Shown piece by piece: positions 13,166 through 28,870 of a DNA stretch of 40,758 nt (positions are counted from its first letter, which is position 1; each line of letters starts with the position of its first letter). The notes beneath the pieces are model-generated. The model worked only from the letters and a program-made list of their open reading frames with translations. It was not told the DNA's origin and did no database searches. The stretch comes from a virus (lineage: Duplodnaviria; Caudoviricetes), in the IMG/VR virus record IMGVR_UViG_3300020161_002793, positions 1-40,758 of that record. One strand, given 5' to 3'. Both the position numbers and the translations under genes were made by a program.

Positions 13166-13212
13166 TCTTCCACCACCGTCACAACAAGACCAGAAAAAAA
13201 CTTTAGCCCCGT
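13166..13212 (+). repeat. Bipartite dispersed repeat, copy 1
   Basis: TCTTCCACCACCGTC ACAACAAGA...AGCCCCGT (gap 24). Confidence 0.85.
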
Positions 13213-13291
13213 TTATATTAATTCTCATTCTTATAGGCTAATATTCTAATGGCGTCAATGGGTTCCCCCTTCTCCCCAGAAGACGCCAGGT

Positions 13292-13340
13292 GGGGTTGAG
13301 CCGCAATGGTTTAGTGTAGGTAACCATGTGCGGCTCCCCC
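13292..13340. terminator. Long hairpin after minus-strand operon
   Basis: GGGG..GAGCCGCA.ATGGTT...AACCAT.TGCGGCTC.CCCC. Confidence 0.55.
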
Positions 13341-13347
13341 ACTGTTT

Positions 13348-13851
13348 TTAAATCAAATCAAGAAGAAACTGTTCTTTGTCCCACATGATGCCAATAGCTG
13401 AATAGCCGGCAATGTCAAGCACGGTGTCTTTAATCGGTTCGTTCGAAGCTGCCAAGCTGCTGGCGGCCAGATTCTCTAATCGCGCAATCTTGTCATGGAC
13501 CCTAATCAGTAAACCGTCCCGCCCGAACTTGGCTATGTTGTGATGCCCATAGTCCCGTTGCTTTTTAACCAGGGTTGAGCTGAGCTCTTCGTGTGAAACA
13601 CTATGGCCGGCAGAAAGGCCCCAGGTTAAAGCTTTTGCTCCCAGGACAAGCCAGTCTTCAGCGGCTGATGAACCCGGTTTGTTGAAGAAGTTCGTAGACA
13701 TGTCTTCAAACCAGTCCCGAATGTCGTTGATGCTCGAGGTGATTTGTTCGCTTAAAACAAATATTTCTTTCGACGCCTGATACGACGCGTCATTCCAATT
13801 TGTGTATTCAGTGTTTGAAAAACTGTTTATTGTTTCATTTAGTGAAGGCAT
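13348..13851 (-). CDS. Nucleotide-modification-associated domain protein (DUF1599/Nmad1-like)
   Basis: KKQRDYG..NI...G...R..DK.ARL.NL....E...DT..D..GY. Confidence 0.75.
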   Translation of the reverse strand: MPSLNETINSFSNTEYTNWNDASYQASKEIFVLSEQITSSINDIRDWFEDMSTNFFNKPGSSAAEDWLVLGAKALTWGLSAGHSVSHEELSSTLVKKQRDYGHHNIAKFGRDGLLIRVHDKIARLENLAASSLAASNEPIKDTVLDIAGYSAIGIMWDKEQFLLDLI

Positions 13852-13870
13852 ACAACATGTCTACCACACG

Positions 13871-13885
13871 TCTTCCGCCACCGTC
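13871..13885 (+). repeat. Repeat core only (box A)
   Basis: TCTTCCGCCACCGTC, intergenic. Confidence 0.7.
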
Positions 13886-13891
13886 AATTGT

Positions 13892-14059
13892 TTAGGATGC
13901 TCTGGACAAGTCTTTCACTTTTGTTTCCTGCATTTCCGCAGCTGTCGAATGTTTGTACGAGCATGTTGGTGGCGCAGAGAGACCAACATATGTGGTTAAC
14001 GTGTTCTCGCAGCGCGGACAAATCCAGTGACGCGTCTTTTCGGCTCGTGATTCTTTCAT
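13892..14059 (-). CDS. Small Zn-ribbon protein
   Basis: WICPRC...PTC...H. Confidence 0.5.
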   Translation of the reverse strand: MKESRAEKTRHWICPRCENTLTTYVGLSAPPTCSYKHSTAAEMQETKVKDLSRAS

Positions 14060-14132
14060 AATTATATAGTTAATCACAAACAGGCCAAAACGAGGAGCAC
14101 AACCAATACGGTTGCAAAACTGATTACTTCGT

Positions 14133-14339
14133 TCACCACGACCTCCAGCTCTGGCCCCACCTTGGTGATGTTGACCTAAGGTATTTAGTAAATCGCGGAA
14201 ATCTTTTTTCAGTGAGCTCTGGGATGACTATGTGCACCAACACATCAATCAGCCGCATAAATCTGCAGGGGGACCCAAGACGAGTCCTGGAGACAGGTTT
14301 AGTTGCCGGCAATGACTTTAACGTTTCGCGGAGCGACAT
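14133..14339 (-). CDS. Hypothetical protein
   Basis: ORF packed in the minus-strand operon. Confidence 0.35.
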   Translation of the reverse strand: MSLRETLKSLPATKPVSRTRLGSPCRFMRLIDVLVHIVIPELTEKRFPRFTKYLRSTSPRWGQSWRSW

Positions 14340-14343
14340 ATCT

Positions 14344-14697
14344 TTAGTCAGAATCACTTTCAAAATCCTTTCTAAGGTCGCGCATAACTCCAAGAATCAT
14401 TGTCTTCATTGCTTCTTTTTTCTCTGGTGTGGAATCTTCATAGAGTGCATGCATGAGCTTCATGAAAACCGTGGCGCCCATCATCACGAATTCTTCAAGC
14501 GTGTTTCCTTCTCTCTTAACCATTTCGGAAATTGCTTTGCTATCTCCAGCTGCAAGTACTTGGCGCTCTTCCCATGTAAGTGCGTCAATTGGTAGAACCA
14601 TGACGTCTTCAGTGACCGGGAATCCTCGTTTTTCAAGGTCGTCCCATATATAAAGTGAGCCAATTGGTCTGCCTTCTTCATGTTCTGAATTATTCAT
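14344..14697 (-). CDS. Hypothetical protein
   Basis: RBS GAGGAG upstream; 117 aa. Confidence 0.7.
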   Translation of the reverse strand: MNNSEHEEGRPIGSLYIWDDLEKRGFPVTEDVMVLPIDALTWEERQVLAAGDSKAISEMVKREGNTLEEFVMMGATVFMKLMHALYEDSTPEKKEAMKTMILGVMRDLRKDFESDSD

Positions 14698-14750
14698 TAC
14701 TTCTCCTCGTTGTGTTTAAAATATTACCTAATTGATTAATCAATAACAAC

Positions 14751-14765
14751 TCTTCCACCACCGTC
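14751..14765 (+). repeat. Repeat core only (box A)
   Basis: TCTTCCACCACCGTC overlapping the stop of the minus-strand gene. Confidence 0.7.
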
Positions 14766-15216
14766 AACTTACGGAGGTCTCATCGAGCAGGCCGAAACTG
14801 GCAAACAGCTCACTGACGTCGGTCAGAGTTGCTTCTTCGAATTCTCGCGAGTCGCGGTCGACAAAAGCTGCGATTACCGCCTTGGTGGCCCGTTCAGTCC
14901 ACACCGACTTACGACTTCCATGCATTCTGCTCATCAGCCGAATAGATGCGCATCCTGGCATGATTGCATTCCTCCAATTAAGAGCGCAGTCAATGAAATT
15001 GCGCGGGCTCAGCTTTCTCCCGACTCTTTTTTCCAAACAGCCAATACATAGAAAGCCGTCAACATTGCCGGCCTTTTTCCAACATGAGTTGGTAACCATG
15101 TAGTACTCACCGATTTCGGCGGTGTCTACTCCGCAGTCATGGCAATCAAAGTTGACTAGGCCTTCGCAGTCTTCGCAAAGCTCATCTTCTGTGTCGGGCT
15201 TGCGTACTTTTTTCAT
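14764..15216 (-). CDS. Cys-rich hypothetical phage protein
   Basis: CEDC, CHDCG...EYYMV....W, LCIGCLE.R.GR.L; RBS GGGGAC. Confidence 0.7.
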   Translation of the reverse strand: MKKVRKPDTEDELCEDCEGLVNFDCHDCGVDTAEIGEYYMVTNSCWKKAGNVDGFLCIGCLEKRVGRKLSPRNFIDCALNWRNAIMPGCASIRLMSRMHGSRKSVWTERATKAVIAAFVDRDSREFEEATLTDVSELFASFGLLDETSVS

Positions 15217-15226
15217 ATTTGTCCCC

Positions 15227-15586
15227 CTACTTCTCTTCGTAAATTTCTTGCGCTTTTGCGACAATCGCATCCCAATATTTAGTGTCCTCCAGAGGGCGGT
15301 CCACCAAAGTGAGGAATGCAGAATCTGTAAGTTTTTTTACTGCAAGGTCAATGTATTGTTTTTGAACTTTTTCGTCAACAGCATCCCAGCGAGAAATTGT
15401 TTTACGCTCTTCTGCTTCAGTCTCAACCCATACATCATGTGTTTGAAAATTGGCGCGCTTGTTCTCTCCTGTATGGTCTGCCGGGTCCTCAACTTGCACC
15501 AGACAGGCCACAGCAAGAGCGTCAAGCTCAGCAGCTGTAAGAGGGTTTTGTGTTACGAACCCAACTTTGATTTGATACTGCATCAT
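15227..15586 (-). CDS. Hypothetical protein
   Basis: Coupled operon gene. Confidence 0.65.
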   Translation of the reverse strand: MMQYQIKVGFVTQNPLTAAELDALAVACLVQVEDPADHTGENKRANFQTHDVWVETEAEERKTISRWDAVDEKVQKQYIDLAVKKLTDSAFLTLVDRPLEDTKYWDAIVAKAQEIYEEK

Positions 15587-15825
15587 TACAAGTCGCCTTG
15601 CAGGTCATCTTCTCTAATATCAATTGTCACTTCTTCCATATCGCCCAACTCAACATCGGAAAAAGAATCGCTGATGAAATCAGCATTCTCGTTCAGCCAG
15701 ATGCCTTTGTCGTCAATATCAAGGTCGTCCCAATTGGATGGCAGTTCCGCATGAAGGTTGTAAGTGATGTAACGGTCAACACTGTGTTCACGTGTTTCGC
15801 GATTTGTAACGTTATAAATAGTCAT
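15586..15825 (-). CDS. Hypothetical acidic protein
   Basis: Coupled operon gene. Confidence 0.65.
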   Translation of the reverse strand: MTIYNVTNRETREHSVDRYITYNLHAELPSNWDDLDIDDKGIWLNENADFISDSFSDVELGDMEEVTIDIREDDLQGDL

Positions 15826-16007
15826 TTAGGTACCCCCATGTAGTAGTTGATAATTTGCGGTAAGTGTGTTGATTTGTTAAGAACCGATTGTGGAACGAGG
15901 CCGTCATTCATAATCATGTCTTCTTCAACAGTGATTTCAGAATCTTGAACAAGAAAACATTCATCCACACGAATAACACGGTCAGTCTCTGGGTGAATAA
16001 TGTACAT
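15822..16007 (-). CDS. Hypothetical protein
   Basis: Coupled operon gene. Confidence 0.6.
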   Translation of the reverse strand: MYIIHPETDRVIRVDECFLVQDSEITVEEDMIMNDGLVPQSVLNKSTHLPQIINYYMGVPK

Positions 16008-16187
16008 TTAAATAACCTTTCTTGCAATTTGGATTTCAATTTTTGACATCAAGTCGTCAATCTCTGGAAATCGCTCTTGAAGCGCTCCGCGATTGTTGTA
16101 GAAAAAATCCATTGCCATTGTTTCAACAATTTCTTCAGCATCCAATTCATCAGGAATTGTCAAAGTCATGTGGATAGTTTTAGGCAT
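16008..16187 (-). CDS. Hypothetical protein (59 aa)
   Basis: Manual translation MPKTIHMTLTIPDELDAEEIV...; fills the operon gap exactly. Confidence 0.6.
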   Translation of the reverse strand: MPKTIHMTLTIPDELDAEEIVETMAMDFFYNNRGALQERFPEIDDLMSKIEIQIARKVI

Positions 16188-16504
16188 TAGATATCCCCTT
16201 TCAAGGCAAATTGTGGAATCAATGCTGTATATCCCCTATTGGGGTCTTCGTTATCAGTGTGCACAGCATCAATAAATCGCAGACTGCACGAGCTGTCCCA
16301 CCATTCCAAAATCTTTTCAAACATTTCTTCAGGTGTTCCGCGAAAAGATTCTTCTCCATTTTCCCCGGCATAGTTCTTTTCAAACCGCGAGGCCACTTCT
16401 GTATCCATGGACAAATAGATTTTGTGGCACGAATCCCAAGAGATGAGCAAAGCTTCTTTAAGAGCTTTTTCAACATCGTCCCAATAGGTGTTAACAGTTT
16501 TCAT
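16187..16504 (-). CDS. Hypothetical phage protein
   Basis: WDSCHKIY..MD...WW..SC.LRFI motif; RBS AAGGAG. Confidence 0.7.
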   Translation of the reverse strand: MKTVNTYWDDVEKALKEALLISWDSCHKIYLSMDTEVASRFEKNYAGENGEESFRGTPEEMFEKILEWWDSSCSLRFIDAVHTDNEDPNRGYTALIPQFALKGDI

Positions 16505-16523
16505 ACAAATACTCCTTGAATAA

Positions 16524-16664
16524 TTATTTTTTGTTTGTGATTAAACGGTGATTTTGATAAACACGGTCAAAGACCGATTTCGCTCCACACTTTGTACAGC
16601 GGTAATGGCCTGCAGGTGCAAGACACTTCCAAAAGTGTTTACTTTCTTCACATACCTTCTTCAT
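16524..16664 (-). CDS. Small Zn-finger-like protein (46 aa)
   Basis: MKKVCEESKHFWKC...YRCTKCG; RBS GGGAG. Confidence 0.55.
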   Translation of the reverse strand: MKKVCEESKHFWKCLAPAGHYRCTKCGAKSVFDRVYQNHRLITNKK

Positions 16665-16696
16665 ACAAATACTCCCTCTACTTATGTATGGGGTGC

Positions 16697-16725
16697 ACGC
16701 TACACCCCATAAGCAAGTTTGTCAA
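16697..16725 (-). promoter_or_regulatory. SigA-type promoter
   Basis: TTGACA-N17-TAGCGT. Confidence 0.65.
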
Positions 16726-16928
16726 GGCTTTATAATTTTAATTCGGTGTTGTTCTACCCATTGCTCGCCAGTGCCATCGGCCGGCTTGACCAATACATCT
16801 ACGTGGCCGAAACGGGCCCTAATGTCCTGAATAACAACATTGATGGTCATCTTTTCAACGTCCATCAAGGCCATCATCCCTTTTGTGAACGGCTTCTTCT
16901 TGGTTGCTTGCTCCATAGTGAGTTCCAT
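16722..16928 (-). CDS. Small SH3-like hypothetical protein
   Basis: RBS GAAAGGAG before ATG 16928; V.IQD.R..FG.VD.LV.P..G.GEQWV. Confidence 0.65.
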   Translation of the reverse strand: MELTMEQATKKKPFTKGMMALMDVEKMTINVVIQDIRARFGHVDVLVKPADGTGEQWVEQHRIKIIKP

Positions 16929-17013: not shown

Positions 17014-17052
17014 TCATCCGCCACCGTCGCGATAAAACGACCCGAAGCCCCG
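17014..17052 (+). repeat. Bipartite dispersed repeat, copy 2
   Basis: TCATCCGCCACCGTC GCGATAAAA...AGCCCCG (gap 17). Confidence 0.8.
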
Positions 17053-17173
17053 CGGCCGAACTAGCGGGACAAAAGTCCCGTGCTCTTACGCGCCGCCTGG
17101 ATGCAGCTGCATGATTCGGCCGGCAGCTACGTACTTCCGCCATAAAAAACATATTTGTATTAGCCTCTTGACT

Positions 17174-17563: not shown

Positions 17564-17777
17564 TCAACAAAAGTCTGCAGCGTATTTGATTTTTGCCGGC
17601 CTGATGGGCTGGCTCTTTGCAAGCACTATTTACGCCGTGAACTTTTGGGCGGGGCTGTTGGTCTTGAGATACTACGAAGTGATAGATGACATCATTCCGT
17701 ATCAGGGTTGTTTTGTTTTAGCCGCGCTAATAAACCTTACATTGGTTTACGACAGAGCTATCAGACTAAAAAAATAG
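17556..17777 (+). CDS. Small membrane protein
   Basis: Two hydrophobic segments. Confidence 0.55.
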   Translation: MSNQQKSAAYLIFAGLMGWLFASTIYAVNFWAGLLVLRYYEVIDDIIPYQGCFVLAALINLTLVYDRAIRLKK

Positions 17778-17811
17778 TCTTACGAATCTTCGTATCTTTT
17801 CTCGTTGGTCG

Positions 17812-17958
17812 TCATACGCCACCGTCAATAATTTTGGAAGGCGGGGTTTCCATTTTCAGAACCATCTCGGCCATCACCCATTGAATTGTGTCAGGGTGTG
17901 TTCCGGCAAGAACTTCTCGCATCTGAGATTTTAGTTCTTCAATTTCTTTTTCAGTCAT
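17812..17958 (-). CDS. Small hypothetical protein (48 aa); 3' end overlaps a box A core at 17812-17826
   Basis: MTEKEIEELKSQMREVLAG...; RBS AGGAG; TAATG coupling. Confidence 0.5.
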   Translation of the reverse strand: MTEKEIEELKSQMREVLAGTHPDTIQWVMAEMVLKMETPPSKIIDGGV

Positions 17959-18092
17959 TACCTTCTCCTTGTCTGTTTATGTCTTCTTCTATTGTTTGCC
18001 CTGTCGTGCTCTCTGAGCGTGTATTTGATGAGCAACCAAATAATTGTCCACGACACGATTGCGAACAGCAAGAACTTTGCGTCTTCGGTCAT
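17958..18092 (-). CDS. Small membrane peptide with basic tail (44 aa)
   Basis: MTEDAKFLLFAIVSWTIIWLLIKY...RRR; RBS AAGGG. Confidence 0.5.
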   Translation of the reverse strand: MTEDAKFLLFAIVSWTIIWLLIKYTLREHDRANNRRRHKQTRRR

Positions 18093-18156
18093 TGTTTCCC
18101 TTTCCTTGATGACGGGCTGACAAGCTCGGGGGTGATGCCTGCCAACCCGTCAAAGC

Positions 18157-19641
18157 CTACTTCAAATACAGAACTTTGGAAGTTCTTGAATGATAAACAT
18201 ACCCAAGATGATATGGAACGATACTCGTAACTTTTTCACGACGCTGGAGTGCTTTCAACATTTCAATAGCGTCGTCGGCTGTTGGTACAACATAGATGCC
18301 ATTTTTTTTACAGATGTTGATACATTCCATTTCAAGCCCAGCACCTTGGCAATCGTTTTTCCCAGTAACCCCACCATCAGAAACCCAAATAATTGGTTCT
18401 TTGAGATTTTTCCTTTGAGAGACTGCCCACAGCAAAGCCGGGCCATCTACTCCGTTGCCACCATTAGGGCTTGGCAACTGTTCAATCATTCTCCCATTTT
18501 TGCCAATTACATACAGATTTGGTTTGACATTAGAGCCACCAGAATACTGAGCCACAAGCGCATTGGGAGAACTCAACAACATTTCTCTTACCTGTTCAGC
18601 AGCAAGAGACATTGAGCCACTTCTGTCAATCAGAAGAATACCCCCACTACCTTTTGTTACTCGGTCAAAGATGCGTCTTTGTGGGTCGGTGTAAAGACGA
18701 GAAATACGGCGTGGACTTTTCCCAAATTGAGAAGGACTTCTTTTTTTACTAATTGAGCCATAAACATTTTTTGTAAGCATTGGGGTTGAAACTTTGAGTT
18801 CTTCCCATTGGTTTTTCGCTGCTTTTTTGGGGGCTGACCATTCAATTTCTTCTTTGGCCATTCGCAACTCATTACCTTTTCGGCCTTGGCGGGATTTACC
18901 AAGCATTTTTTGCCATTCGTTTTGTTGGTCAGGATTTGAATTTTCGGCGTCAGCACCTTCTTCAAAGGCGTCAGCAACTTCTTCAATCCACTTGGCCAAC
19001 ATTTCTGTATAACCGAACCCGTGCCTATCTGGTCGTGGGGAAGTAGAGACATACGCAGAAGCGATATCTTCGTTCAAACGCTCGTCAAAGTATTCCTTTG
19101 AAGCCACGGAAATTTCTTTTACTGGTTTTGCCCATTCGGGTTTGAGATTTGAAATTTCTTCAACAAAGCTGTCAAATTCGGCAGTTCGTGAGTATTTGAC
19201 AGAATTGAGAAGGGCATCTTTCATAGTTCCAACCTGAGCAATACGAGTTGCTACAAACTTTCCAGTTCCGTTTTGGATAAATTTTTCCGGCTCAAACCCA
19301 AGAAAGTTCAGATACGAATGAACACGGAGTTCTTCGCAGGCCACAAGAGCGTTAGAAGAAGCGTAACCTCTTGGTATCCAAACTTTCTCCATTTCTTTTT
19401 CGCTCGGAGAAATTTTGGCGTGAACCATTTCGTGAGCCTGAATATGTCTTGTGGTTTCGTCGTTGCCGATTGGCACAGACAAGATGCGACTGTCTACAAC
19501 AGCGAAAGGTTGGCCTGAATAAACAGACCAATTCCCTTTCTCAACATCTTCTCTAGTGAGCATCTCGGGTTCGGGGACAAGAAATTTAGAAGTGCTGACA
19601 CTCACTTCTGCGCTTGAATTACTTCCTGAATAGATATCCAT
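18157..19641 (-). CDS. vWA-domain protein with N-terminal HExxH metallopeptidase-like domain
   Basis: AHEMVH, EELRV; MIDAS DRSGSM; WVSDG. Confidence 0.82.
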   Translation of the reverse strand: MDIYSGSNSSAEVSVSTSKFLVPEPEMLTREDVEKGNWSVYSGQPFAVVDSRILSVPIGNDETTRHIQAHEMVHAKISPSEKEMEKVWIPRGYASSNALVACEELRVHSYLNFLGFEPEKFIQNGTGKFVATRIAQVGTMKDALLNSVKYSRTAEFDSFVEEISNLKPEWAKPVKEISVASKEYFDERLNEDIASAYVSTSPRPDRHGFGYTEMLAKWIEEVADAFEEGADAENSNPDQQNEWQKMLGKSRQGRKGNELRMAKEEIEWSAPKKAAKNQWEELKVSTPMLTKNVYGSISKKRSPSQFGKSPRRISRLYTDPQRRIFDRVTKGSGGILLIDRSGSMSLAAEQVREMLLSSPNALVAQYSGGSNVKPNLYVIGKNGRMIEQLPSPNGGNGVDGPALLWAVSQRKNLKEPIIWVSDGGVTGKNDCQGAGLEMECINICKKNGIYVVPTADDAIEMLKALQRREKVTSIVPYHLGYVYHSRTSKVLYLK

Positions 19642-20381
19642 CAGGAAGCCTTTTTTGATGTTTCAATTTTCAATGCGTCCAAGATTGACTTGGCACGGTT
19701 CTGAAATACGATTTCAGCCGCATATTTCGCACCAACAGAACTTCGCAGTTTGTCAAAGGCATACCAAGAGCGCAACGAAACTCTCCTGACCCCAGCATCA
19801 CACATTTGTTTTGCTGGTTCGCGCAAATCTTCGCTCAAACGCAGGAGAGCGTTTGGGTGTGGTTCGTCAATACGGATACAGACGGGGAAACGGTCTTTCA
19901 GTGCGATAGGGAGTTCTTCCATCTGCTCAATGTTCGTTGTCATAACAACGCTGAAACCTTTCAGGGGAACAACTTGTTCCTGCGTTTCAGGATTTGACCA
20001 AACTGCGCTTTCAGCACTGTCTGTGATTGCGAGAAGTGTTGCGAACACATCTCCACCTGCTTTGTCAATTTCATCTACGACAAGTCGGCCACCAACTTCC
20101 CCGTTGCCTCGCCAAGCTCTGATGCCTGCGCCCTCAAGCCAAGTAAGCCCACCAGTTTTTTCTTGAACCCACATTCCTGTAACTTCGGCAGTTGTCATAT
20201 CGTCGGTACAGGCCAAACGGTGTGCGCCACCCTGAACATCTCCAAGAGAAAGGCCAGCGTATGTCTTTCCAATTCCAGGTGCGCCATAAAGAACAACTCG
20301 GTCAATTCCGGCGTTCAACGCATCTTCAAGAACCTGCCAGCATTTTGGAAGGAGAGTATTTTTTGATTTTGTCTTTGTCAT
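19641..20381 (-). CDS. MoxR-type AAA+ ATPase
   Basis: Walker A GAPGIGKT, Walker B VVDEID, MTTN, ALKDRF; coupled to the vWA gene. Confidence 0.88.
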   Translation of the reverse strand: MTKTKSKNTLLPKCWQVLEDALNAGIDRVVLYGAPGIGKTYAGLSLGDVQGGAHRLACTDDMTTAEVTGMWVQEKTGGLTWLEGAGIRAWRGNGEVGGRLVVDEIDKAGGDVFATLLAITDSAESAVWSNPETQEQVVPLKGFSVVMTTNIEQMEELPIALKDRFPVCIRIDEPHPNALLRLSEDLREPAKQMCDAGVRRVSLRSWYAFDKLRSSVGAKYAAEIVFQNRAKSILDALKIETSKKAS

Positions 20382-20410
20382 TTCTGACCCCTTTTGTAGT
20401 AGTTATTTTT

Positions 20411-20439
20411 ATGTTAGGTATTTAGTAGAAATATGTCAA
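20411..20439 (-). promoter_or_regulatory. SigA-type promoter
   Basis: TTGACA-N17-TAACAT. Confidence 0.7.
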
Positions 20440-20478
20440 GTAGGGGTGAGTAAGTTCATACCCACCCCTACAGGATTG

Positions 20479-20883
20479 TTAGGAAGCTTGAGCGACGCTC
20501 TGTTGCTTCTTGGCTTTTGCTTCTGCTGACACAGGTGTTACACGAACCTGTGAGTATGGGGTAACGGTAGCGACGGTGTCGGCTACTTGTTGGTCAATCA
20601 ACCCCATCTTGATTGCGCTTTCCATCAGGTCATTATCCACGACCATCTTGGTAACTTTTTTCAGGACAGTCGGCTTGACCATCTGTGAAAGAGTTTCAGC
20701 GTCAAATGACACTCGGGTTGCTTCCACGATTTTGACGATTACGCCATTTGTCGTGTAGTTGTCAATTCCGGCCTTGGCGAGTTCCTGTCGGAGTTCTGCT
20801 TCCGCGGCTTTTTTTGCTTTTGTTGCTTCTGCTTCTTGTTGTTTCAGAACCAAATAGTTCTGAACTGTCTGTTCAAGTGCCAT
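20479..20883 (-). CDS. Coiled-coil phage hypothetical protein
   Basis: RBS GAAGGAAAG before ATG 20883; own promoter and downstream hairpin 20440-20472. Confidence 0.7.
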   Translation of the reverse strand: MALEQTVQNYLVLKQQEAEATKAKKAAEAELRQELAKAGIDNYTTNGVIVKIVEATRVSFDAETLSQMVKPTVLKKVTKMVVDNDLMESAIKMGLIDQQVADTVATVTPYSQVRVTPVSAEAKAKKQQSVAQAS

Positions 20884-20921
20884 CTTTCCTTCTTTCTGTA
20901 GTGGTTGTGATTGGCACTTGT

Positions 20922-20950
20922 AACCTACAGGGGACACAATGAAATGTCAA
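20922..20950 (-). promoter_or_regulatory. SigA-type promoter
   Basis: TTGACA-N17-TAGGTT. Confidence 0.7.
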
Positions 20951-21160
20951 GTGTTATTCGGAAATACTTCTCCAGAGTTTGTGTGGCCTTCGGCACAAGG
21001 TTTTGGCTGTTTGTTTGCGACGGTCAGTAAACCGAACAGCTCTAAATCTAAAGCCATCAGCGAACTGTTGTCTCTCGGCATCTGACCAAACAGCTTTGAT
21101 TTTTCGTTTCATACCCAATTATCGCACAGCCGGTTTGGCCAGACGCAACGGTCTCGGCCA

Positions 21161-21220
21161 TCATACGCCACCGTCGCAACAAGAAGAAGCCCCGTTTGCT
21201 ATTCCCCGGCACGGGGCTTC
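21161..21220 (+). repeat. Bipartite dispersed repeat, copy 3; box B forms an inverted repeat
   Basis: TCATACGCCACCGTC GCAACAAGA GAAGCCCCGT...ACGGGGCTTC (gap 12). Confidence 0.85.
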
Positions 21221-21335
21221 TGGTCGCCATCTGGCCGCTTGGCCGCGCACGAGCTGTCCGGCACGGAACTGGATTGCTTCGCTGTCGGTCAAGCAACAAA
21301 TATACCCTTTGTGTCTAAGAACACATAAATATAAC

Positions 21336-21364
21336 TTGACATTTATGCTTGTCTTTTATACATT
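21336..21364 (+). promoter_or_regulatory. SigA-type promoter
   Basis: TTGACA-N17-TACATT. Confidence 0.7.
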
Positions 21365-21400
21365 ACAAGAGTTACATAAACCAATCCCAAAGGGGGAATA

Positions 21401-21868
21401 ATGTCCACACTCACCGAGCAGGTAAAAAACCTGTTCATCGCTACTGGGTCAGAAAGAGATGCCGATGAAAATCTGTCTCTCACCAAGGCTCTGTTCTACA
21501 CAATCAACAAAGCCGGTTCTCATCGGGTTGTCTTCTCAGCAGGAGATATCTACGACGGGCTGGAAGAACTTGGCGACAAGTTCGTTCTCGGAACAAACGA
21601 AGTGGCGATTGCGATTGAAACAACTGGCTGGGCTGCTCCGATTGAAGGAAATGAAGATGAAGATGAAGATGAAATGGTTGCGCCAAGTCAGCACCCAAAG
21701 CGTCGTCGTGTTCGTCTGATGTCAATCGTAACTCGCAGTTACGAAGTTGCTAGTGCCTTGGGTTTCGCCGACGATGATGAAATCGTTACCGACTCAGGAA
21801 CTGCTAGGGGTTCATTGGCAGAAGCTTTGCTTCACACGATGAAACAAATCGTTAGCAAGTCCAACTAA
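21401..21868 (+). CDS. Hypothetical actinophage-type protein
   Basis: TTGWAAP....PSQHPKRRRVRL motif; RBS, promoter and terminator present. Confidence 0.75.
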   Translation: MSTLTEQVKNLFIATGSERDADENLSLTKALFYTINKAGSHRVVFSAGDIYDGLEELGDKFVLGTNEVAIAIETTGWAAPIEGNEDEDEDEMVAPSQHPKRRRVRLMSIVTRSYEVASALGFADDDEIVTDSGTARGSLAEALLHTMKQIVSKSN

Positions 21869-21890
21869 ATAGCCGACTAAACTCGGTTCT

Positions 21891-21931
21891 AACAAAGCCC
21901 CATCGCCTTCGGGTGGTGGGGCTTTCGTTTG
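21891..21931 (+). terminator. Intrinsic terminator
   Basis: AAAGCCCCATCGCC-TTCG-GGTGGTGGGGCTTT. Confidence 0.75.
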
Positions 21932-21998
21932 TCCCCAATCAGACGCGCTTCGTTTCCGCGATTGTCCAACGCGCTTCGCTTCCGCGATTGCCGGTCCG

Positions 21999-22049
21999 TC
22001 TTCCACCACCGTCGCAACAAGACTGAACCATTTGGGGCAATAGCCCCGT
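21999..22049 (+). repeat. Bipartite dispersed repeat, copy 4
   Basis: TCTTCCACCACCGTC GCAACAAGA...TAGCCCCGT (gap 28). Confidence 0.88.
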
Positions 22050-22156
22050 GGGTTTTAGATTGAACCTCTTCGGCCTGCAGCTTCTCGGCCTTCAGGCTCC
22101 CGGCCTGCAGCTTTCCGGCCTGACTAAAAAATTTCTGAATTTCTTATCATTGACAC

Positions 22157-22185
22157 TTGACAATCACACACGGGCTATATACACT
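22157..22185 (+). promoter_or_regulatory. SigA-type promoter
   Basis: TTGACA-N17-TACACT. Confidence 0.7.
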
Positions 22186-22216
22186 CAATGGCACATCACA
22201 TACAAAAGGAGAAATT

Positions 22217-22735
22217 ATGGGAATGGATGTATTTGGGAATAATCCCCGAAACAAAGAAGGCGAATATTTCAGAAACAATGTTTGGTGGTGGAGGCCACTC
22301 GCAGATTTCATCTTGGAGTGCTACCCCGAAATTGCAAACAAATGCGAGCATTGGCACAGCAACGACGGAGATGGTCTTGACGCTCACGACGCAAAAGAAC
22401 TCGCCGAAAGATTGCAGGCCGACATTGAAAATGGCAAAGTTTCCGAATGGGAAAAAAACTATAACGAATGGCGTTCTTCGCTTCCTCGTGAAGCGTGCGA
22501 AATTTGTAATTGCACAGGCATTCGGTCTGATGAGCGTGGAGTTGAAATGGGAATGCCCGACAAAGAACTTTCTCCCGAAAACAAAATTCTTACTGGCCGC
22601 GAATACGGTTGGTGCAACAGTTGCGACGGTGTGGGAACAAAAGAAAATTGGCTTAGTTCATATCCGTTTGAAACTGACAACGTAAAAGAATTTGCCAACT
22701 TTCTCAAAAATTCAGGAGGTTTCAAAATCTGCTAG
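22217..22735 (+). CDS. Hypothetical phage protein with DnaJ-like CxxCxGxG Zn motifs
   Basis: GEYFRNNVWWWRPL; CEICNCTG, CNSCDGVG; SGGF.IC; RBS AAGGAG. Confidence 0.75.
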   Translation: MGMDVFGNNPRNKEGEYFRNNVWWWRPLADFILECYPEIANKCEHWHSNDGDGLDAHDAKELAERLQADIENGKVSEWEKNYNEWRSSLPREACEICNCTGIRSDERGVEMGMPDKELSPENKILTGREYGWCNSCDGVGTKENWLSSYPFETDNVKEFANFLKNSGGFKIC

Positions 22736-22798
22736 TTGCTTTTATTTCATAACCGATATACCATAACAATCAAACAGCAATCACCCAAAGGAGGCGTG

Positions 22799-23017
22799 AT
22801 GATTACCAAGCAAGCAAAACTTGCCGCAAAACTGTGTGAATTTCGCACAGAGGCAGGACTGACACAGCAAGAAGTCGCAGACCTCGCAGGTATTGACCGT
22901 AAAACAGTCAATAGAATTGAGAACAACCGTTTCTCGCCAAGCGTGGACACAATTCTTCGTCTTTGTGTTACGTTCGCAAAAAAACCATCCGAAGTATTTG
23001 AATCGGCAGGTTTGTAA
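22799..23017 (+). CDS. XRE/Cro-family HTH regulator
   Basis: R...GLTQQEVADLAGIDRKTVNRIENNRFSPS; promoter TTGCTT-N17-TACCAT at 22736-22764. Confidence 0.88.
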   Translation: MITKQAKLAAKLCEFRTEAGLTQQEVADLAGIDRKTVNRIENNRFSPSVDTILRLCVTFAKKPSEVFESAGL

Positions 23018-23269
23018 ATGACCACGACAAAAACACCAGTCTCGGGGGTAGAAATTACCCCTGAGATGGCAAGCAATATTGCCAAGATTACAGAAAAAGG
23101 GCAACTTGATATGGCCACTAATTTCTTGAAAGTCTTGAAAGATAACTACTCATTGGAAGACCTCGGTGTTTTGGACGTTCTTGACGCTCTTGGTATTTGT
23201 GGTTTGTCTTTGACAATCGGCGAATGGGCTTCCTACACCTATCTCACAGAACTCGCAAAGGAGGCGTAA
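23018..23269 (+). CDS. Hypothetical protein
   Basis: Coupled operon gene. Confidence 0.6.
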   Translation: MTTTKTPVSGVEITPEMASNIAKITEKGQLDMATNFLKVLKDNYSLEDLGVLDVLDALGICGLSLTIGEWASYTYLTELAKEA

Positions 23270-23700
23270 TGGCTACTCGCTCAATTTTCGCTGAAACAAC
23301 ATCCGAAGGATGGCGCGGCCGGTATTGCCATTGGGACGGACACCCTGGGACAAAGATTGACCAGTTGCTTTTTCTTGTCGCCCGTGATGGCCTAGAGAAA
23401 GTCAAACAGGTTCTTCTCCACGACAACTACTCGTGGTCTTCTATTGACCCTTTCTCCGAACCCGACAGTTCAGAAACCCGCTTCAAAAATGTTGCTGGTT
23501 ACGGTATCGCACATAACGATTTGACCGAAACTGAACAGTATTGGTTTCAGCAATCTGATGCCGATTTCGCTTGGACGGAATACTTGTATGTATTCGGTAA
23601 TGATGGCATTCAAGTTTGGTCAGCGACTGGAGAAAATGAATGGGAAACTTCTTTGAGTAACTTCCATCCATACACTTCAAAACTGGAAACATCCAAATAG
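23269..23700 (+). CDS. Hypothetical phage protein (YCHWDG-type)
   Basis: MATRS...YCHWDGHP...EYLYVF; RBS AAGGAGG. Confidence 0.75.
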   Translation: MATRSIFAETTSEGWRGRYCHWDGHPGTKIDQLLFLVARDGLEKVKQVLLHDNYSWSSIDPFSEPDSSETRFKNVAGYGIAHNDLTETEQYWFQQSDADFAWTEYLYVFGNDGIQVWSATGENEWETSLSNFHPYTSKLETSK

Positions 23701-23771
23701 TCAGTTTCAAAAATTTCCCCTATCCGAGTAAGACGCAACTCGGGTAGGGGAATTGTTGTATCGGGAGAAAA

Positions 23772-24332
23772 ATGTTCGTTGATAAAGAATTACTTGAAAC
23801 CATCAAAGACCTTGTGGTTCAGTTGAAAGAAATTGCTGACAGAGAAAAATGGCCAGCCGCACCCCCGGCAGTATTGTTCAAAGAGAACAAAAAGGGAAGT
23901 GAGAATATGCTCACCGACCTAGATGACGACCAAGACACGCTTGAAGAATGTGCTATTAGTGCGCTCAGCAGAATAGTAAATCAGGGCATTAGAGATGTCC
24001 TGTGGGCAGGTATTCTGTGCGAAGGCTACGCACTCATTGAAGGAAAAGTGATGCGAGAGCCGGAAACGAAATCACTTGAAGAAGAATTTGGAAACAATCC
24101 GTTCACCAAAGTAACCGAAGTTGTCGCAGTTTGTATCGCTGATAACAAATTACGGAGTGAAACAATTATGTTTCCTTATAAGAGAGATGATTTCGGAAAG
24201 ACCGTCATTGGCGAACCATATCTACGTTCCCAAGACCCCGAGAATTGCGACAACAGCAATCTTTCATCCTTTGAACAAATCTCTTTGAGGTTTCAAGAAG
24301 TCTTACTGGGTCTTCGTAAATCCAACTTCTGA
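23772..24332 (+). CDS. Hypothetical protein
   Basis: 186-aa ORF with RBS GGGAG; hairpin 23715-23752 upstream. Confidence 0.65.
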   Translation: MFVDKELLETIKDLVVQLKEIADREKWPAAPPAVLFKENKKGSENMLTDLDDDQDTLEECAISALSRIVNQGIRDVLWAGILCEGYALIEGKVMREPETKSLEEEFGNNPFTKVTEVVAVCIADNKLRSETIMFPYKRDDFGKTVIGEPYLRSQDPENCDNSNLSSFEQISLRFQEVLLGLRKSNF

Positions 24333-24370
24333 TTGCCTTCTGACCGGCACGCAGTCAGCTGCTTGCCCGC

Positions 24371-24421
24371 TCATCCGCCACCGTTACAACAAGATGATGC
24401 GGCTTTGTTTCAAAGCCCCGT
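24371..24421 (+). repeat. Bipartite dispersed repeat, copy 5
   Basis: TCATCCGCCACCGTT ACAACAAGA...AAGCCCCGT (gap 28). Confidence 0.88.
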
Positions 24422-24614
24422 TGGGGTTGAAATCTGCCGCAGCAGCTGCGCCGCGGCTACTTTCCGGCCCTTTCGGGCAGAAGCGGGGCTGTTGGTCTTC
24501 AGGGGGGGGGTGGAATGAATTTGCCGGCAGAACTCTCGTCGCGCTAGGGCTGGCCGAAGTCGGTTGGCCGAAGATGGCCGAAGCTGGCCACCGATTAAGA
24601 ATCTTTAAAAAAAG

Positions 24615-24643: not shown

Positions 24644-24676
24644 AAATAGAAATAAACTAATTACCTAAGGGGGTAT

Positions 24677-25099: not shown

Positions 25100-25111
25100 G
25101 CAAGCAAGCCT

Positions 25112-25156
25112 TAGGGCTGATTACCCCTCACACGGGGTAGTCAGCCCTATTTTTTT
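25112..25156 (+). terminator. Intrinsic terminator
   Basis: TAGGGCTGATTACCCC-loop-GGGGTAGTCAGCCCTA plus T-tract. Confidence 0.8.
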
Positions 25157-25192
25157 GCCCAAGCTCAGTTGTGCCCATTGGCCTGCCGATGC

Positions 25193-25243
25193 TCATCCGC
25201 CGCCGTCGCTACAAGACGCAAACTTGCCGTCCCGAAGCCCCGT
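25193..25243 (+). repeat. Bipartite dispersed repeat, copy 6
   Basis: TCATCCGCCGCCGTC GCTACAAGA...AAGCCCCGT (gap 28), immediately followed by TATAAT. Confidence 0.88.
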
Positions 25244-25255
25244 TATAATCAATCT

Positions 25256-25450
25256 ATGAACCTTTACCATTGCGAAATATGCGGCCACCCGGTTGACCCG
25301 TCCCACACCAACGTTGCGCATTTAGTTACCGCATGGCTAAAGGGAGGAAGGGGCGCAGTTGTCAGGGTCGTTGAAAAACAGTACAGATATGCACATGTTG
25401 TGTGTGCTGAGTCCACTCCGAAAGCAGAGCAAGTAGAAAAGCTTTTTTAA
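25256..25450 (+). CDS. Small Zn-binding protein (probably leaderless)
   Basis: CEICG...H..C; TATAAT 6 nt before ATG. Confidence 0.6.
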   Translation: MNLYHCEICGHPVDPSHTNVAHLVTAWLKGGRGAVVRVVEKQYRYAHVVCAESTPKAEQVEKLF

Positions 25451-25496
25451 AGCGAGAAGAGTACTAGCAGAACGCAAGCAACTGTAAAGAATTCAA

Positions 25497-25739
25497 TCAT
25501 GATGCACGCTCCGCGAGTTTAACAATTTCTTCTTTCGCGATTTGGCCAATAATATCCTGAACAGTCAGGTAGTCGGTTTGCCAAACTTTGATTTTGTAGT
25601 TAAGCCGGCCGTTGTGAAGGTCATCGAACAATTTGCTCACGCCCTTAATTGGCGGAGCTCCGTAAGGAAGATATTCATCCAAGAGAATTTCTTTGATGTC
25701 TTTCTCGGTAAAGTCTCTCGGGTCGCTGAAGTCCCCCAT
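25497..25739 (-). CDS. Hypothetical protein
   Basis: RBS AAGGGA; promoter TTGACA-N17-TACATT at 25798-25770. Confidence 0.7.
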   Translation of the reverse strand: MGDFSDPRDFTEKDIKEILLDEYLPYGAPPIKGVSKLFDDLHNGRLNYKIKVWQTDYLTVQDIIGQIAKEEIVKLAERAS

Positions 25740-25802
25740 TTAAATCCCTTTCTTTTTTGTGTGCTGCACAATGTACATGACACCCGTCTGGATGTCAACT
25801 AT

Positions 25803-26081
25803 TTATTTCTGCGGGAAAATTATTTCTTGACCGAGTTGGATGCCGGCTCCATAGATGCGAACGGTGTCGTCAACAGCGTTGAGAAGGTGGCCAGAACAAT
25901 TAGCTTGCACGAGGTCCCAGATGGTGTCACCGTATGAAACGACAATCGGGTTGGAATTGCAGCTGTATGCATTAACACGAATCTCGTGTTGCATATATGC
26001 AAATCCGGCCAAGAAAGTCCCCAGAGCAAGAATGCCACCAGTGACAATATTGAAATGAGTTTGACGATTACGTGAGCTCAT
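25803..26081 (-). CDS. TM plus LysM-like protein, paralog A
   Basis: N-terminal TM; IVVSYGDTIWDLV...IQLGQEIIFP. Confidence 0.7.
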   Translation of the reverse strand: MSSRNRQTHFNIVTGGILALGTFLAGFAYMQHEIRVNAYSCNSNPIVVSYGDTIWDLVQANCSGHLLNAVDDTVRIYGAGIQLGQEIIFPQK

Positions 26082-26144
26082 AGAACCAAGTCTACGAACT
26101 TATTTAAAAAACGCAACAGCTGCTGAGACCAAGGCGGCAGCTCG

Positions 26145-26194
26145 ACATCCGCCACCGTCGTTACAAGACGTCCAGGTCCGGGCAATAGCCCCGT
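26145..26194 (+). repeat. Bipartite dispersed repeat, copy 7
   Basis: ACATCCGCCACCGTC GTTACAAGA...TAGCCCCGT (gap 27). Confidence 0.88.
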
Positions 26195-26585
26195 GCTAGA
26201 AAAAGAAAAACACGAGTTCAAATGGAAAGCCGAAGCGCCGTGCCGAGGAAGAAGCCTTCGCATCTGAAGCCCGACCCCGCAGTTGATGGGTTTGATGTAA
26301 TAAATTAGCCTGGATTGTCACGCGTTGCGTAAATTTCATAACATTCCTGCCGCTTGACCCGAAGTGCGTTCAGGTTCAGCGGGACTATCGGTCTTCTTTG
26401 GCGGCAGCTGCCATCTCCGGCCGCAGCAGCTACAAAGGAGCTCAACCGGGTCTGGCTGTAGTCCCGCTTGATAAAGGATGTGGGACGTAACACCTGCTGG
26501 CCTGACTGGAAGTCCGCAGAACTTTCTGAATGGCCACCGGCGCAAACTGGCTCAGGAAGACAACCGAGAAGGGAGGAATAGAAAC

Positions 26586-26614
26586 TTGACAATGTTCAAA
26601 AAGTTGGATATCAT
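26586..26614 (+). promoter_or_regulatory. SigA-type promoter
   Basis: TTGACA-N17-TATCAT. Confidence 0.7.
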
Positions 26615-26646
26615 AAACGGTACAAAGAAGGGGAGGGGGTGAAAAA

Positions 26647-27006
26647 TTGAAGGTAAAATTTGGAAGCAGCACCGTGAACATTCTCAGCCTCGTGCGAGAT
26701 GGTAGACCGTGCGACATCAAAGAAACAAACGCTCAAGTCGGGAGAATGAACATTCTCGCTATCTCGGGCGGGCGAGTTCTGCCATTGAAAAATGCGCTAG
26801 GTGAAACGGTAGGCGTGGCTTATCCCGTAGACGCAAGTCGTCGGGTTGAAGTAATCCTTGACTATGACGACACTTATTCGGTTAGCCGAATTAGATATAT
26901 CACCAAAGGAAGCGAAGCAAATACCGAAGTCGTGGAATATTCCGTGTCAGGCGTATATTGCGACAATGTCGGTGAAGTTGCATATTCCGCTAGTTGCTGG
27001 AAGTAA
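26647..27006 (+). CDS. Hypothetical actinophage-type protein
   Basis: Q.G.MNILAISGGR...V.V.L...DTYSV.R...GVYCD...EVAY.AS; RBS GGAGGGGG. Confidence 0.75.
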   Translation: MKVKFGSSTVNILSLVRDGRPCDIKETNAQVGRMNILAISGGRVLPLKNALGETVGVAYPVDASRRVEVILDYDDTYSVSRIRYITKGSEANTEVVEYSVSGVYCDNVGEVAYSASCWK

Positions 27007-27017
27007 CACCACAGGCA

Positions 27018-27054
27018 AGACCCCTAGTCCGACCCCCTTGGGCTAGGGGTCTTT
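27018..27054 (+). terminator. Intrinsic terminator
   Basis: AAGACCCCTAGTCC...GGGCTAGGGGTCTTT. Confidence 0.75.
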
Positions 27055-27111
27055 CGCTGTCCCTGAACGTTTGCCGTGCCGGAAACCCGCCGTGCCGATG
27101 CCGTGCCGAAC

Positions 27112-27162
27112 TCATCCGCCACCGTCGCTACAAGATGAAAGTCTGGAACCCAAAAGCCCCGT
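27112..27162 (+). repeat. Bipartite dispersed repeat, copy 8
   Basis: TCATCCGCCACCGTC GCTACAAGA...AAGCCCCGT (gap 28). Confidence 0.88.
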
Positions 27163-27344
27163 GAACAAAGAAAACGAAGATGCGGCACAGCTGCTGCAGC
27201 CGGATGGAAGTTCTTTCTCGGGGGGTGGAGAATTTCTTTCTTGGGACTGAAGGCAATCAAAACCGTTGAAATCCACATCACGCAAACAAAAACGCGTTTT
27301 GGTCTCAGGTTTGAGATTCAGACAGCCAGGTAACACCTTTGGCG

Positions 27345-27542
27345 TAGACGGGGCTCGCGCCCGAAGTGAAGGGAGACTTTCGGCTTTAGCAGCATGCTAA
27401 AGACGAAGGCTTCCCGAACGAGGGCGGTAGTAGCGGGGCTTTCGGTCTTCAACGAATATCCCGCGCAACCTAAACCAGTTCAAATGGACTTTCTTCTCGG
27501 CGGAAACCAGAACTCGGCTTCTGGCCATAGAGCGCCCATCTA
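27345..27542. ncRNA. Candidate multi-stem structured element
   Basis: Closing stem TAGACGGG-GCTC/GAGC-GCCCATCTA with internal hairpins; homologous to 31599-31692. Confidence 0.45.
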
Positions 27543-27600
27543 AAAAAAAAGAATCAAAACGGTCATTGACTTTCAAATTCCAACCCTGTAAGTTGCTTTT

Positions 27601-27792
27601 ATGACTCAACTTGGATTTGTAACGCAATTTGGTTATGATGTAACCTGTTTCCGTTGCGAACAAACAATAAAAGCAAAAGAATATTGTGTAAAAATTCCTG
27701 AAGAAGGAATTATGCACGTGAATCGTGATTGCGTGCAAGAAAAAAGACTAGAAGCAATGAAAATGCACCCGACTAGGAGAAGAAATGATTGA
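27601..27792 (+). CDS. Small Zn-binding protein (leaderless)
   Basis: CFRC...H...C; promoter TTGACT-N17-TAAGTT at 27566-27594. Confidence 0.65.
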   Translation: MTQLGFVTQFGYDVTCFRCEQTIKAKEYCVKIPEEGIMHVNRDCVQEKRLEAMKMHPTRRRND

Positions 27793-27841
27793 AATGCTTA
27801 CCGTCGCTGTGGTGCTCATCATTCTCATCTGTCTCTGACGC

Positions 27842-27892
27842 TCATCCGCCGCCGTCAGCACAAGATGCAAGCCGGCTTTTCAAAAGCCCCGT
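27842..27892 (+). repeat. Bipartite dispersed repeat, copy 9
   Basis: TCATCCGCCGCCGTC AGCACAAGA...AAGCCCCGT (gap 28). Confidence 0.88.
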
Positions 27893-28021
27893 AAAAAGAA
27901 AATATCAAACTAGCCGCTGCTGCAGCACGTTCCGGCACGTTGAACGCAACAGGGTCAGAATCAAATTGATTGAATATTTTTCAAAAATCAGATAAAATTC
28001 AAATACCTCAAAGGGGGGAAA

Positions 28022-28354
28022 ATGACTGAAAATAATTATCGGACAGCAAAAACCATACTCATTACTGTCGTAATCACGGTTGCGTCAGTGTTTGCGTTTT
28101 CTTTTTTGCGTAATCAGCACGAGAAAGATACCCAGTTTTTCTGTACTGGCGCACCTATCCAAATTACCGAAGGCGACACCCTTTACTGGATTGCCCGTAT
28201 GAACTGTGACGGCAATTTTATGGAAGCGGTGGACAAATTGGTGAAACTCTACGGAACTTCACTGACTATCGGAGATACTATTTACCTGCCAACTCATAAC
28301 AGTTGCGAGTTGCGTCTCACTGACGGTGGTCAGGTAATTGAGCAATGCGGGTAA
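28022..28354 (+). CDS. TM plus LysM-like protein, paralog B
   Basis: N-terminal TM; IQITEGDTLYWIA...LTIGDTIYLP; promoter TTGAAT-N17-TAAAAT at 27970-27998. Confidence 0.72.
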   Translation: MTENNYRTAKTILITVVITVASVFAFSFLRNQHEKDTQFFCTGAPIQITEGDTLYWIARMNCDGNFMEAVDKLVKLYGTSLTIGDTIYLPTHNSCELRLTDGGQVIEQCG

Positions 28355-28454
28355 TGACCTAAGGTTTTTACAGCAATGTGGCTACTCAGCAGGTCTGATG
28401 TTGTCGCACTTATTCAAACCAGGAACCAAGAACCGTCTTGATACACTTCGGTAG

Positions 28455-28838
28455 ATGACAACCTTTCCAAAATCTCCAGTCACCGAATGTTCCGCTTGTG
28501 GCGGGGCTTTTGAGGACATGGAGTATTGGGGTCAGCCGGAGAACGGATGGTCTATCCCATGGGAGCTGTTGGGCGGTTACGGAGGGTTCACGGACGAACT
28601 CGGGCCAGCGTTTGAAGGAAGGCCAAGCAAAACATGGGAAATGTGCCATGACTGCGTTGTAAAAATGTTGAAACTTTTTCCTCGCCTCGCAAATGACATT
28701 GGAAAAGGAAACCATCCGTGCAAAGATGCGGTTCCGTGTTGCGAATGGGCGTGGAAGTCTGAAGACGGAGTGATATTTATCGTCGTGGACGGTGAGTGGG
28801 TTCTTGCGCCGAGTGAACATCCGCCACCGTCACCGTAA
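28455..28838 (+). CDS. Cys-rich hypothetical protein
   Basis: CSAC...GGYGGFTD...MCHDC...CCEWAW. Confidence 0.7.
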   Translation: MTTFPKSPVTECSACGGAFEDMEYWGQPENGWSIPWELLGGYGGFTDELGPAFEGRPSKTWEMCHDCVVKMLKLFPRLANDIGKGNHPCKDAVPCCEWAWKSEDGVIFIVVDGEWVLAPSEHPPPSP

Positions 28839-28870
28839 CGCGCTTCTTCGAGCCAGAGCCATAGCCCCGT
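28817..28870 (+). repeat. Bipartite dispersed repeat, copy 10
   Basis: ACATCCGCCACCGTC...TAGCCCCGT (gap 31); overlaps the 3' end of the upstream CDS. Confidence 0.8.

Follow-up and report, generated by a model that had tools for sequence, protein, structure and literature searches.

A short word of constant strand marks a gene-cassette block beside a replication operon in freshwater actinobacterial phages

We analyzed IMG/VR virus record IMGVR_UViG_3300020161_002793 (Caudoviricetes), an entire 40.8-kb contig (40,758 nucleotides) referred to below as the window. To the right of its replication operon lies a block of small gene cassettes punctuated by box A, a short word that keeps the same strand whichever way the neighboring genes are transcribed. 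We tentatively favor the view that box A is a polar, protein-bound signal tied to replication moving away from the operon of f5 and f8, which encode an initiator-type protein and a helicase loader, and that the shuffling of the cassettes is a by-product of recombination by a Sak annealase and an exonuclease.

Results

Box A is an asymmetric, non-palindromic word of 15 to 16 bp with the consensus YYWTMCRCCACCGTC. It occurs 13 times in the window, always on the + strand and never beyond positions 13166 to 28831, compared with 0.27 occurrences on average, and never more than 2, in 100 dinucleotide shuffles. We gathered 64 related loci via the MoxR-type ATPase of the block and scanned them with a matrix trained on forward-strand core matches in loci L014 to L064. 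This search returned 421 matches on the strand of the window and 0 on the opposite strand; box A was present in 50 of the 64 loci and absent from 14. A symmetric pattern search gave a near-identical picture, and the strand ratio was 194:1 in 80 loci gathered via f5 and 96:1 in contexts outside the training set. As the window is a whole contig, the confinement of box A was checked on complete relatives. In all ten genomes that were at least 90% complete, box A lay on one strand and in a single block of 6 to 17 sites spanning 7 to 24 kb, with at most 2 stray weak matches per genome (G012 to G015 were scanned genome-wide by exact pattern only). The 421:0 ratio and the confinement to one block differ from a random genome-wide orientation, the outcome that a preliminary description of this DNA had named as refuting a function.

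The genes flanking 200 copies with conserved neighbors were arranged as -/- (99 copies), +/+ (44), divergent (35), or convergent (22), and the same gene family was found on either strand across relatives while the orientation of box A was constant. The polarity is therefore that of the genome and not that of transcription. A bias so complete, in phages of ∼42 to 63% GC and next to genes of any direction, points to a DNA-tracking machine as the reader of box A, and we infer from the sequence that a protein binds the word. Among 233 copies, 13 had box A within the end of a coding sequence, and in 8 of these cases that was the 3' end of f5 or f8. In the clade of L028 and G015, the start of f5 falls within a box A copy, and a small gene (L028, as reversed, 5645-5800, and the start of G015) carries box A-like words in both ends of its frame.

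The window phage carries two WhiB genes, and the named homologues of its ferredoxin come mostly from Ilumatobacteraceae and other Acidimicrobiia, which, judging by these genes, are likely the host group. Complete relatives measure 133 to 174 kb and one of them, G001, encodes a tail sheath; the group consists of freshwater actinobacterial myophages. Our searches found no cultured relative of these phages of freshwater Acidimicrobiia. One contig with box A (L117) is binned in a Planctomycetaceae metagenome-assembled genome, where it is probably misplaced. We found no published description of the box A word in the literature searched, a scope that left out most subscription papers, and the term "motif" was absent from the main texts of the freshwater actinophage papers checked.

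The preliminary description had listed ten full copies, in which box A is followed by a second word, box B, and three copies of box A only, and we verified these coordinates. The full copies are copy 1 (13166..13180, with box B at 13204-13212), copy 4 (17014..17053, box B at 17045), copy 6 (21161..21219, with an inverted box B pair at 21187 on the + strand and 21211 on the - strand that forms a hairpin), copy 7 (21999..22049, box B at 22041), copy 8 (24371..24421, box B at 24413), copy 9 (25193..25243, box B at 25235), copy 10 (26145..26194, box B at 26186), copy 11 (27112..27162, box B at 27154), copy 12 (27842..27892, box B at 27884), and copy 13 (28817..28870, box B at 28862), all on the + strand. 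The gaps between the two boxes were likewise as described, at 24, 17, 12, 28, 28, 28, 27, 28, 28, and 31 nt when counted to AGCCCCG, and the ACAAGA said to usually follow box A was present in 8 of the 10 full copies (all except those at 17014 and 28817). The claim that all copies are on the + strand was true of box A only, box B being found on the minus strand too, for example, at 21211, 27348, 27433, 28501, and 31600, so that the polarity belongs to box A alone.

Placement at module boundaries was supported in general, with three copies overlapping gene 3' ends: copy 3 (14751..14765, +, box A only) overlaps the stop codon of open reading frame (ORF) 14764-15270 (-), copy 5 (17812..17826, +, box A only) lies within the last codons of ORF 17812-17958 (-), and copy 13 lies inside the last codons of ORF 28455-28838 (+). 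The ORF at copy 3 belongs to a ∼1-kb insertion that three close relatives lack. Copy 2 (13871..13885, +), the remaining copy without box B, lies 20 nt upstream of where ORF 13348-13851 (-) begins. Repeat and promoter have no fixed geometry, as the next rightward promoter-like site is at a variable distance of ∼130 to 440 nt from box A.

Box B is a clade-limited add-on, and box A alone is the conserved element. The idea of a two-site element was not supported in relatives, where box B accompanies box A in some subclades only. In the two best-sampled subclades (eight records), box B was near 88 of 113 box A copies, at 7 to 31 nt or inverted: it was forward in 56, an inverted pair in 23, and inverted only in 9, and 25 copies had none. 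Elsewhere in the family the block has different cargo, such as perfect DnaA boxes. The inverted pairs, whose members are 22 to 25 nt apart, together with the variable hairpins that follow some box A copies and the CGTC with which box A ends, recall a structured RNA or single-stranded DNA hairpin of the repetitive extragenic palindromic (REP) type. We regard this as extremely unlikely, since the folding z score was below -2 in just 2 of 13 units, no fold was common to them, and Rfam gave tRNA only. The tRNA found by the Rfam scan was a tRNA-Arg, whose bases also gave a second match below threshold, and box A was left unmatched.

The operon at the left edge of the array provides the link to replication. 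Gene f5 (12360..12728, -) encodes, as a stand-alone protein, the C-terminal domain of an O/DnaD-like phage replication initiator (phrog_16167 residues 167-270); it matches proteins annotated as replication protein O or initiation protein and lacks their usual N-terminal DNA-binding part. A fold search with f5 gave weak matches, none with a Z of 5 or more. Gene f8 (11896..12363, -) encodes a helicase loader like SPP1 G39P (family profile versus PDB 1NO1, E value of 3.5e-6; phrog_2289, helicase loader). Two further genes are candidate readers of box A: f6 (11693..11872, -), for a small ribbon-helix-helix (RHH)-type protein recognized by its alignment pattern and without a PDB hit, and f13 (11374..11718, -), for an RHH-type protein with a Cys4 motif and a weak CopG-family hit (E value of 0.76). 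The left edge of the array is fixed at this f5-f8-f6-f13 operon, f13 marking its limit in relatives: 0 of 194 matches were more than 1.41 kb to the left of the f5 start. In 11 genomes, 46 of 124 box A copies lay within 2 kb of where the array begins; 11 of these are the anchor copies themselves.

Box A also alternates with a replication gene. Sixty of the 80 f5 loci had enough flanking sequence, and in 36 of them a primase-helicase gene directly followed f5-f8, all without box A; the remaining 24 had no primase-helicase gene in that place and all had box A. A quick tree of the ATPase needs three changes for the same switch. Furthermore, skew at fourfold-degenerate sites showed the box A strand to be leading-like in 14 of 14 tests. 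In the window, opposite strong AT skews flank the replication operon (-0.53 at 12700-13100 and +0.38 at 10000-11000).

Perfect DnaA boxes lie mostly inside the block in two relatives (13 of 14 in G006 and 6 of 7 in G005) and form clusters in both orientations (G006, 149.8-155.1 kb; G005, 97-114 kb; L042, 7646-7768); such clusters could be host-DnaA origins or decoys. No AT-rich unwinding tract adjoins box A, the AT fraction reaching at most 0.64 over about 10 nt. Among f5 phages without box A, L239 (as reversed, 26-284) and L293 (as reversed, 15328-15480) have iteron-like tandem clusters, and the unit of the latter contains TCGAAC, which we take to be half of the actinobacterial SOS box. A de novo search in box A-negative relatives revealed no substitute dispersed polar word, just promoter or ribosome-binding-site words and tandem clusters.

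We then considered whether box A is itself a recombination site. Whole modules between box A copies are permuted in one clade, as the preliminary description anticipated, and homology between relatives can switch at box A to the base, from >90% identity to background (e.g., L038/L042 and L022/L024). In addition, one near-identical pair differs by a segment that runs from one copy to just beyond the next, and one contig in run X8 begins to match exactly at 14750. A dedicated shuffling site, like a T4-type promoter early stem-loop (PeSL) or an integron site, at which a recombinase exchanges strands was the main option of the preliminary description, and we judge it unlikely. In a first hotspot control, one-sided pairs numbered 18 of 74 at box A versus 257 of 13,555 at other shared 13-mers, but that control was mostly coding DNA. 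After near-identical records had been collapsed to 59, with a gapped check and an intergenic control, one-sided junctions occurred at 10 of 83 box A pairs versus 36 of 484 other shared intergenic 12-mers (P = 0.12), so box A does not significantly exceed such words as a crossover point. Of 67 rearrangement ends, 5 lay at box A (P = 0.07), as did none of 22 indel ends. With 83 junction pairs the test is underpowered, and a mild preference for box A may exist.

Other observations also bear on strand exchange at box A. Two gene deletions within the block (16008-16520 and 25807-26093) distinguish a strain with ∼95% identity to the window, and both are away from box A; of the two ends of the ∼1-kb insertion in the window, just the left one is close to box A. 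Excised circles cannot account for inverted genes next to a box A whose orientation is constant. The contigs of 8 DNA runs, a type of data that drops rare variants, contained no clear joint from one box A to another; a weak joint (26168>29137) had 23 letters on one side, and contig ends did not cluster at box A. The early remark that no recombinase is visible in the window extends to five genomes: profiles for tyrosine recombinases (PF00589; 0 of 5, control 14 of 14), serine recombinases (PF00239; none in 5), and Y1 HUH transposases (PF01797; 0 of 5, control 7 of 14) found none, nor did Pfam and PHROG scans of the G001 ORFs, in which PF07508 was not searched directly. In contrast to this lack, G001 encodes a Rad52/Sak protein and a PD-(D/E)XK exonuclease; an SSB (single-stranded-DNA-binding protein) and a RuvC-like resolvase are also present in the phage. 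In our reading, the shuffling is ordinary recombination through short homologies, in a block whose units are dispensable: reordering would arise when the Rad52-like Sak annealase and the exonuclease act on any short intergenic word that is shared, box A included. The most conserved genes of the block, those for the MoxR-type ATPase and a 494-amino-acid (aa) partner (18157-20381), are uninterrupted by box A in the mapped loci.

A polar transcription block or operator was also weighed, in which a monomeric or heterodimeric repressor at box A would halt RNA polymerase arriving from one side, silencing the leftward replication operon and insulating the cassettes. Copy 1 shares bases with a sigma70-like promoter (13182..13154) that points leftward and lies upstream of that operon, the core is followed at gene starts by a CAT (ATG on the minus strand) in 57 of 467 sites, some copies overlap gene ends, several right-arm copies lie 10 to 60 nt after a terminator-like hairpin, and two RHH-type genes stand at the edge of the array. 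Yet box A ignores the direction of transcription, whereas orientation with transcription is the defining feature of stoperators in the available portion of PMC9283540; cassettes invert and box A does not, and the mixed gene directions given above defeat the stoperator option of the preliminary description. A -10 element at the right spacing was present at 20 of 470 sites versus 14 in a shifted control, and box A as a leftward promoter, which fits few copies only, was rejected. We consequently consider a transcription block doubtful.

None of the proteins proposed earlier as binders matched the distribution of box A. The XRE protein had no match in the complete genomes G001 and G004, and the HA-HTH and MarR-like proteins had none in the complete genome G002; the RHH protein (11693) was matched in all six box A genomes but also in box A-negative relatives. 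The sole tested gene present in 6 of 6 box A genomes and 0 of 3 negatives (41 to 87% complete) encodes an HslV/proteasome-like peptidase (10171-10830), which is not an obvious DNA binder.

The block might alternatively be the first DNA to enter the cell, with box A as an entry signal like the first-step-transfer region of T5 and its injection stop signal. Its small early genes have both orientations, and part of the array in the window (17619..24594) is a zone where several 4-bp palindromes are scarce, its left edge being sharp; sharp-edged zones are found in G001 and G005 as well. This zone is nearly free of TCGA, CATG, TGCA, ACGT, TTAA, and GTAC; these six palindromes occur twice in 17,619-22,075, whereas they average one per 68 nt over the window. 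The DnaA-box clusters of some relatives also resemble those in the T5 injection stop signal, as far as the accessible part of 10.1101/866236 describes it. However, the purge begins in mid-array at 17.62 kb, next to copy 5, it is missing from three genomes that retain box A (G002, G004, and G006), and contig depth over the block is not twofold. Depletion of palindromes marks exposed early DNA in some lineages and does not track box A, and we find an entry signal very unlikely. GATC is absent from the whole window, G001, and G003. A C5 DNA methyltransferase in the window (33832-34822) is spread over two overlapping frames of 186 and 226 aa, through a frameshift or because the gene is broken.

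Packaging or circularization could also require an asymmetric site. The block would then be terminally redundant in a pac/headful genome, and box A would be a terminase site like P22 pac or a loxP-like pairing site, used as one pair per headful. The genome-level polarity, the sharp edge on one side of the array, and the density decaying on the other are consistent with this, and among cultured phages the closest large terminases belong to psiM2 and the Gordonia phages Gray and Chidiebere, whose packaging is headful and circularly permuted. Against it, the large terminase gene is ∼68 kb away in G001, the recognition helix of a helix-turn-helix (HTH) protein (39846-40472) varies among box A phages, and contig depths, a weak test, showed no step at the block. 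We think packaging rather unlikely. That highly conserved HTH protein resembles gene 1 of Gordonia phage Jace, is an unconfirmed candidate for the small terminase, and has been relocated together with the primase-helicase in box A phages. Starts of circular records were rejected as genome ends: 3 of 5 are <2 kb from f5, and the pattern was set aside because the end repeats are assembly overlaps of 99 to 141 nt.

Additional genes stood out. A cassette gene (28022-28354) weakly matches the YneA (LysM) family of cell division suppressors. Next to its head genes, G001 has a 3,462-aa ORF (50408-60796) that contains NUDIX, DnaJ, HTH, and Zeta-toxin-family domains, and near this ORF are three others of 1,264 to 1,996 aa with little annotation.

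Discussion

If box A is a polar replication signal, as we tentatively propose, it would probably serve for one-way loading or restarting of the replisome across a block where transcription is dense. The mode would be akin to that of SPP1 G38P at oriL and oriR, spread over many single sites, and a phage RHH protein or a host factor, for instance DnaA, would provide in trans the DNA-reading function that f5 lacks. A stricter version is a distributed, one-way array for loading replisomes: with an initiator stripped of its origin-binding half and the primase-helicase moved out, an adaptor would read the word and forks would start or restart at ∼1-kb steps. We consider this version possible yet doubtful. 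Were it true, forks would be started one way through the most heavily transcribed DNA.

Several results speak against a role in replication. On the primase tree, the switch between primase-helicase and box A is a single branch and hence one event and one data point. The leading-like skew is modest, is also found in the box A-negative G008, and comes from related genomes, and the best bidirectional origin by skew lies 0.08 to 0.24 genome to the right of the first box A copy. The density gradient is weak in the window, where 3 of 13 copies are in the first 2 kb. As for DnaA, the blocks of G001 to G004 contain no perfect DnaA box; the first 9 nt of box A fit a relaxed DnaA consensus in 256 of 323 cases but never with the canonical final A. 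Genes f5, f6, and f8 and the HTH gene at 39846 are present in box A-negative relatives too, and no HTH or RHH candidate that we tested was both universal in box A phages and restricted to them. Finally, single sites ∼1 kb apart with no AT-rich tract are unlike SPP1 oriL/oriR or iterons.

Known phage repeat families almost all follow transcription (promoters, stoperators, and PeSLs) or cluster compactly (iterons, pac, and att). On the features tested, box A does not belong to the PeSLs, stoperators, integron sites, REPs, or compact origins, yet its way of working is probably that of a polar DNA site of a known kind. The negative hotspot result moves the question from which recombinase acts at the sites to which directional process needs them, and box A is a short, exact substrate for finding the machine concerned in phages of freshwater Acidimicrobiia.

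The comparison with known systems delimits this proposal. Like T4-type PeSLs, as presented in the accessible parts of PMC2839356 and PMC4122927, box A is repeated at the edges of small accessory genes, within a plastic region whose modules are exchanged among relatives. In those same parts, a PeSL is a promoter plus stem-loop of ∼100 bp upstream of its own gene, whereas box A is 15 bp, contains neither a sigma70 promoter nor a terminator stem-loop, and is indifferent to gene direction. The stoperators of cluster A mycobacteriophages are, like box A, asymmetric 13- to 15-bp words present in many copies at promoters and gene junctions of an actinobacterial phage; as portrayed in the portion of PMC9283540 at hand, they follow transcription and are spread genome-wide, whereas box A keeps to one strand and one block and is tracked by none of the candidate repressors tested. 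REPs of the CGTC type have an 8- to 9-bp stem with a 4- to 5-nt loop and form head-to-head dimers (PMC3733652); box A has neither the stem and loop of the CGTC/GTAG REPs nor their two orientations. The T5 first-step-transfer region, in the part of 10.1101/866236 available, is an early block with repeats, and DnaA boxes and depletion of restriction sites recur in some of our lineages; unlike in T5, there is no evidence here of a long terminal repeat, and neither depletion nor DnaA boxes track box A. Integron attC sites need the IntI tyrosine recombinase, found in 0 of 5 genomes here, and an imperfect inverted-repeat fold, whereas box A is non-palindromic and its copies share no fold.

Chi and the FtsK-orienting polar sequences (KOPS) are 5 to 8 nt long and genome-wide, and Ter sites form two opposed groups. 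Box A resembles all three in having a polarity set by the chromosome and not by genes, but it is 15 nt long and occupies one strand of one phage block. Judged by the layout of genes and sites, the nearest working model would be SPP1 G38P, with a different anatomy. In what is accessible of PMC6316719, this origin binder sits at two sites 13 kb apart, may stall forks, and has a PriA-like action. As at SPP1 oriL and oriR in that source, a G39P-like loader and an initiator-type gene adjoin co-oriented repeats in our phages, together with an annealase, an exonuclease, an SSB, and a RuvC-like resolvase. SPP1, as described there, has two compact direct-repeat origins with an unwinding element rich in AT, and its origin binder is full-length, whereas the box A phages have 6 to 17 single sites spread over 7 to 24 kb, no AT-rich tract, and an initiator without its DNA-binding part.

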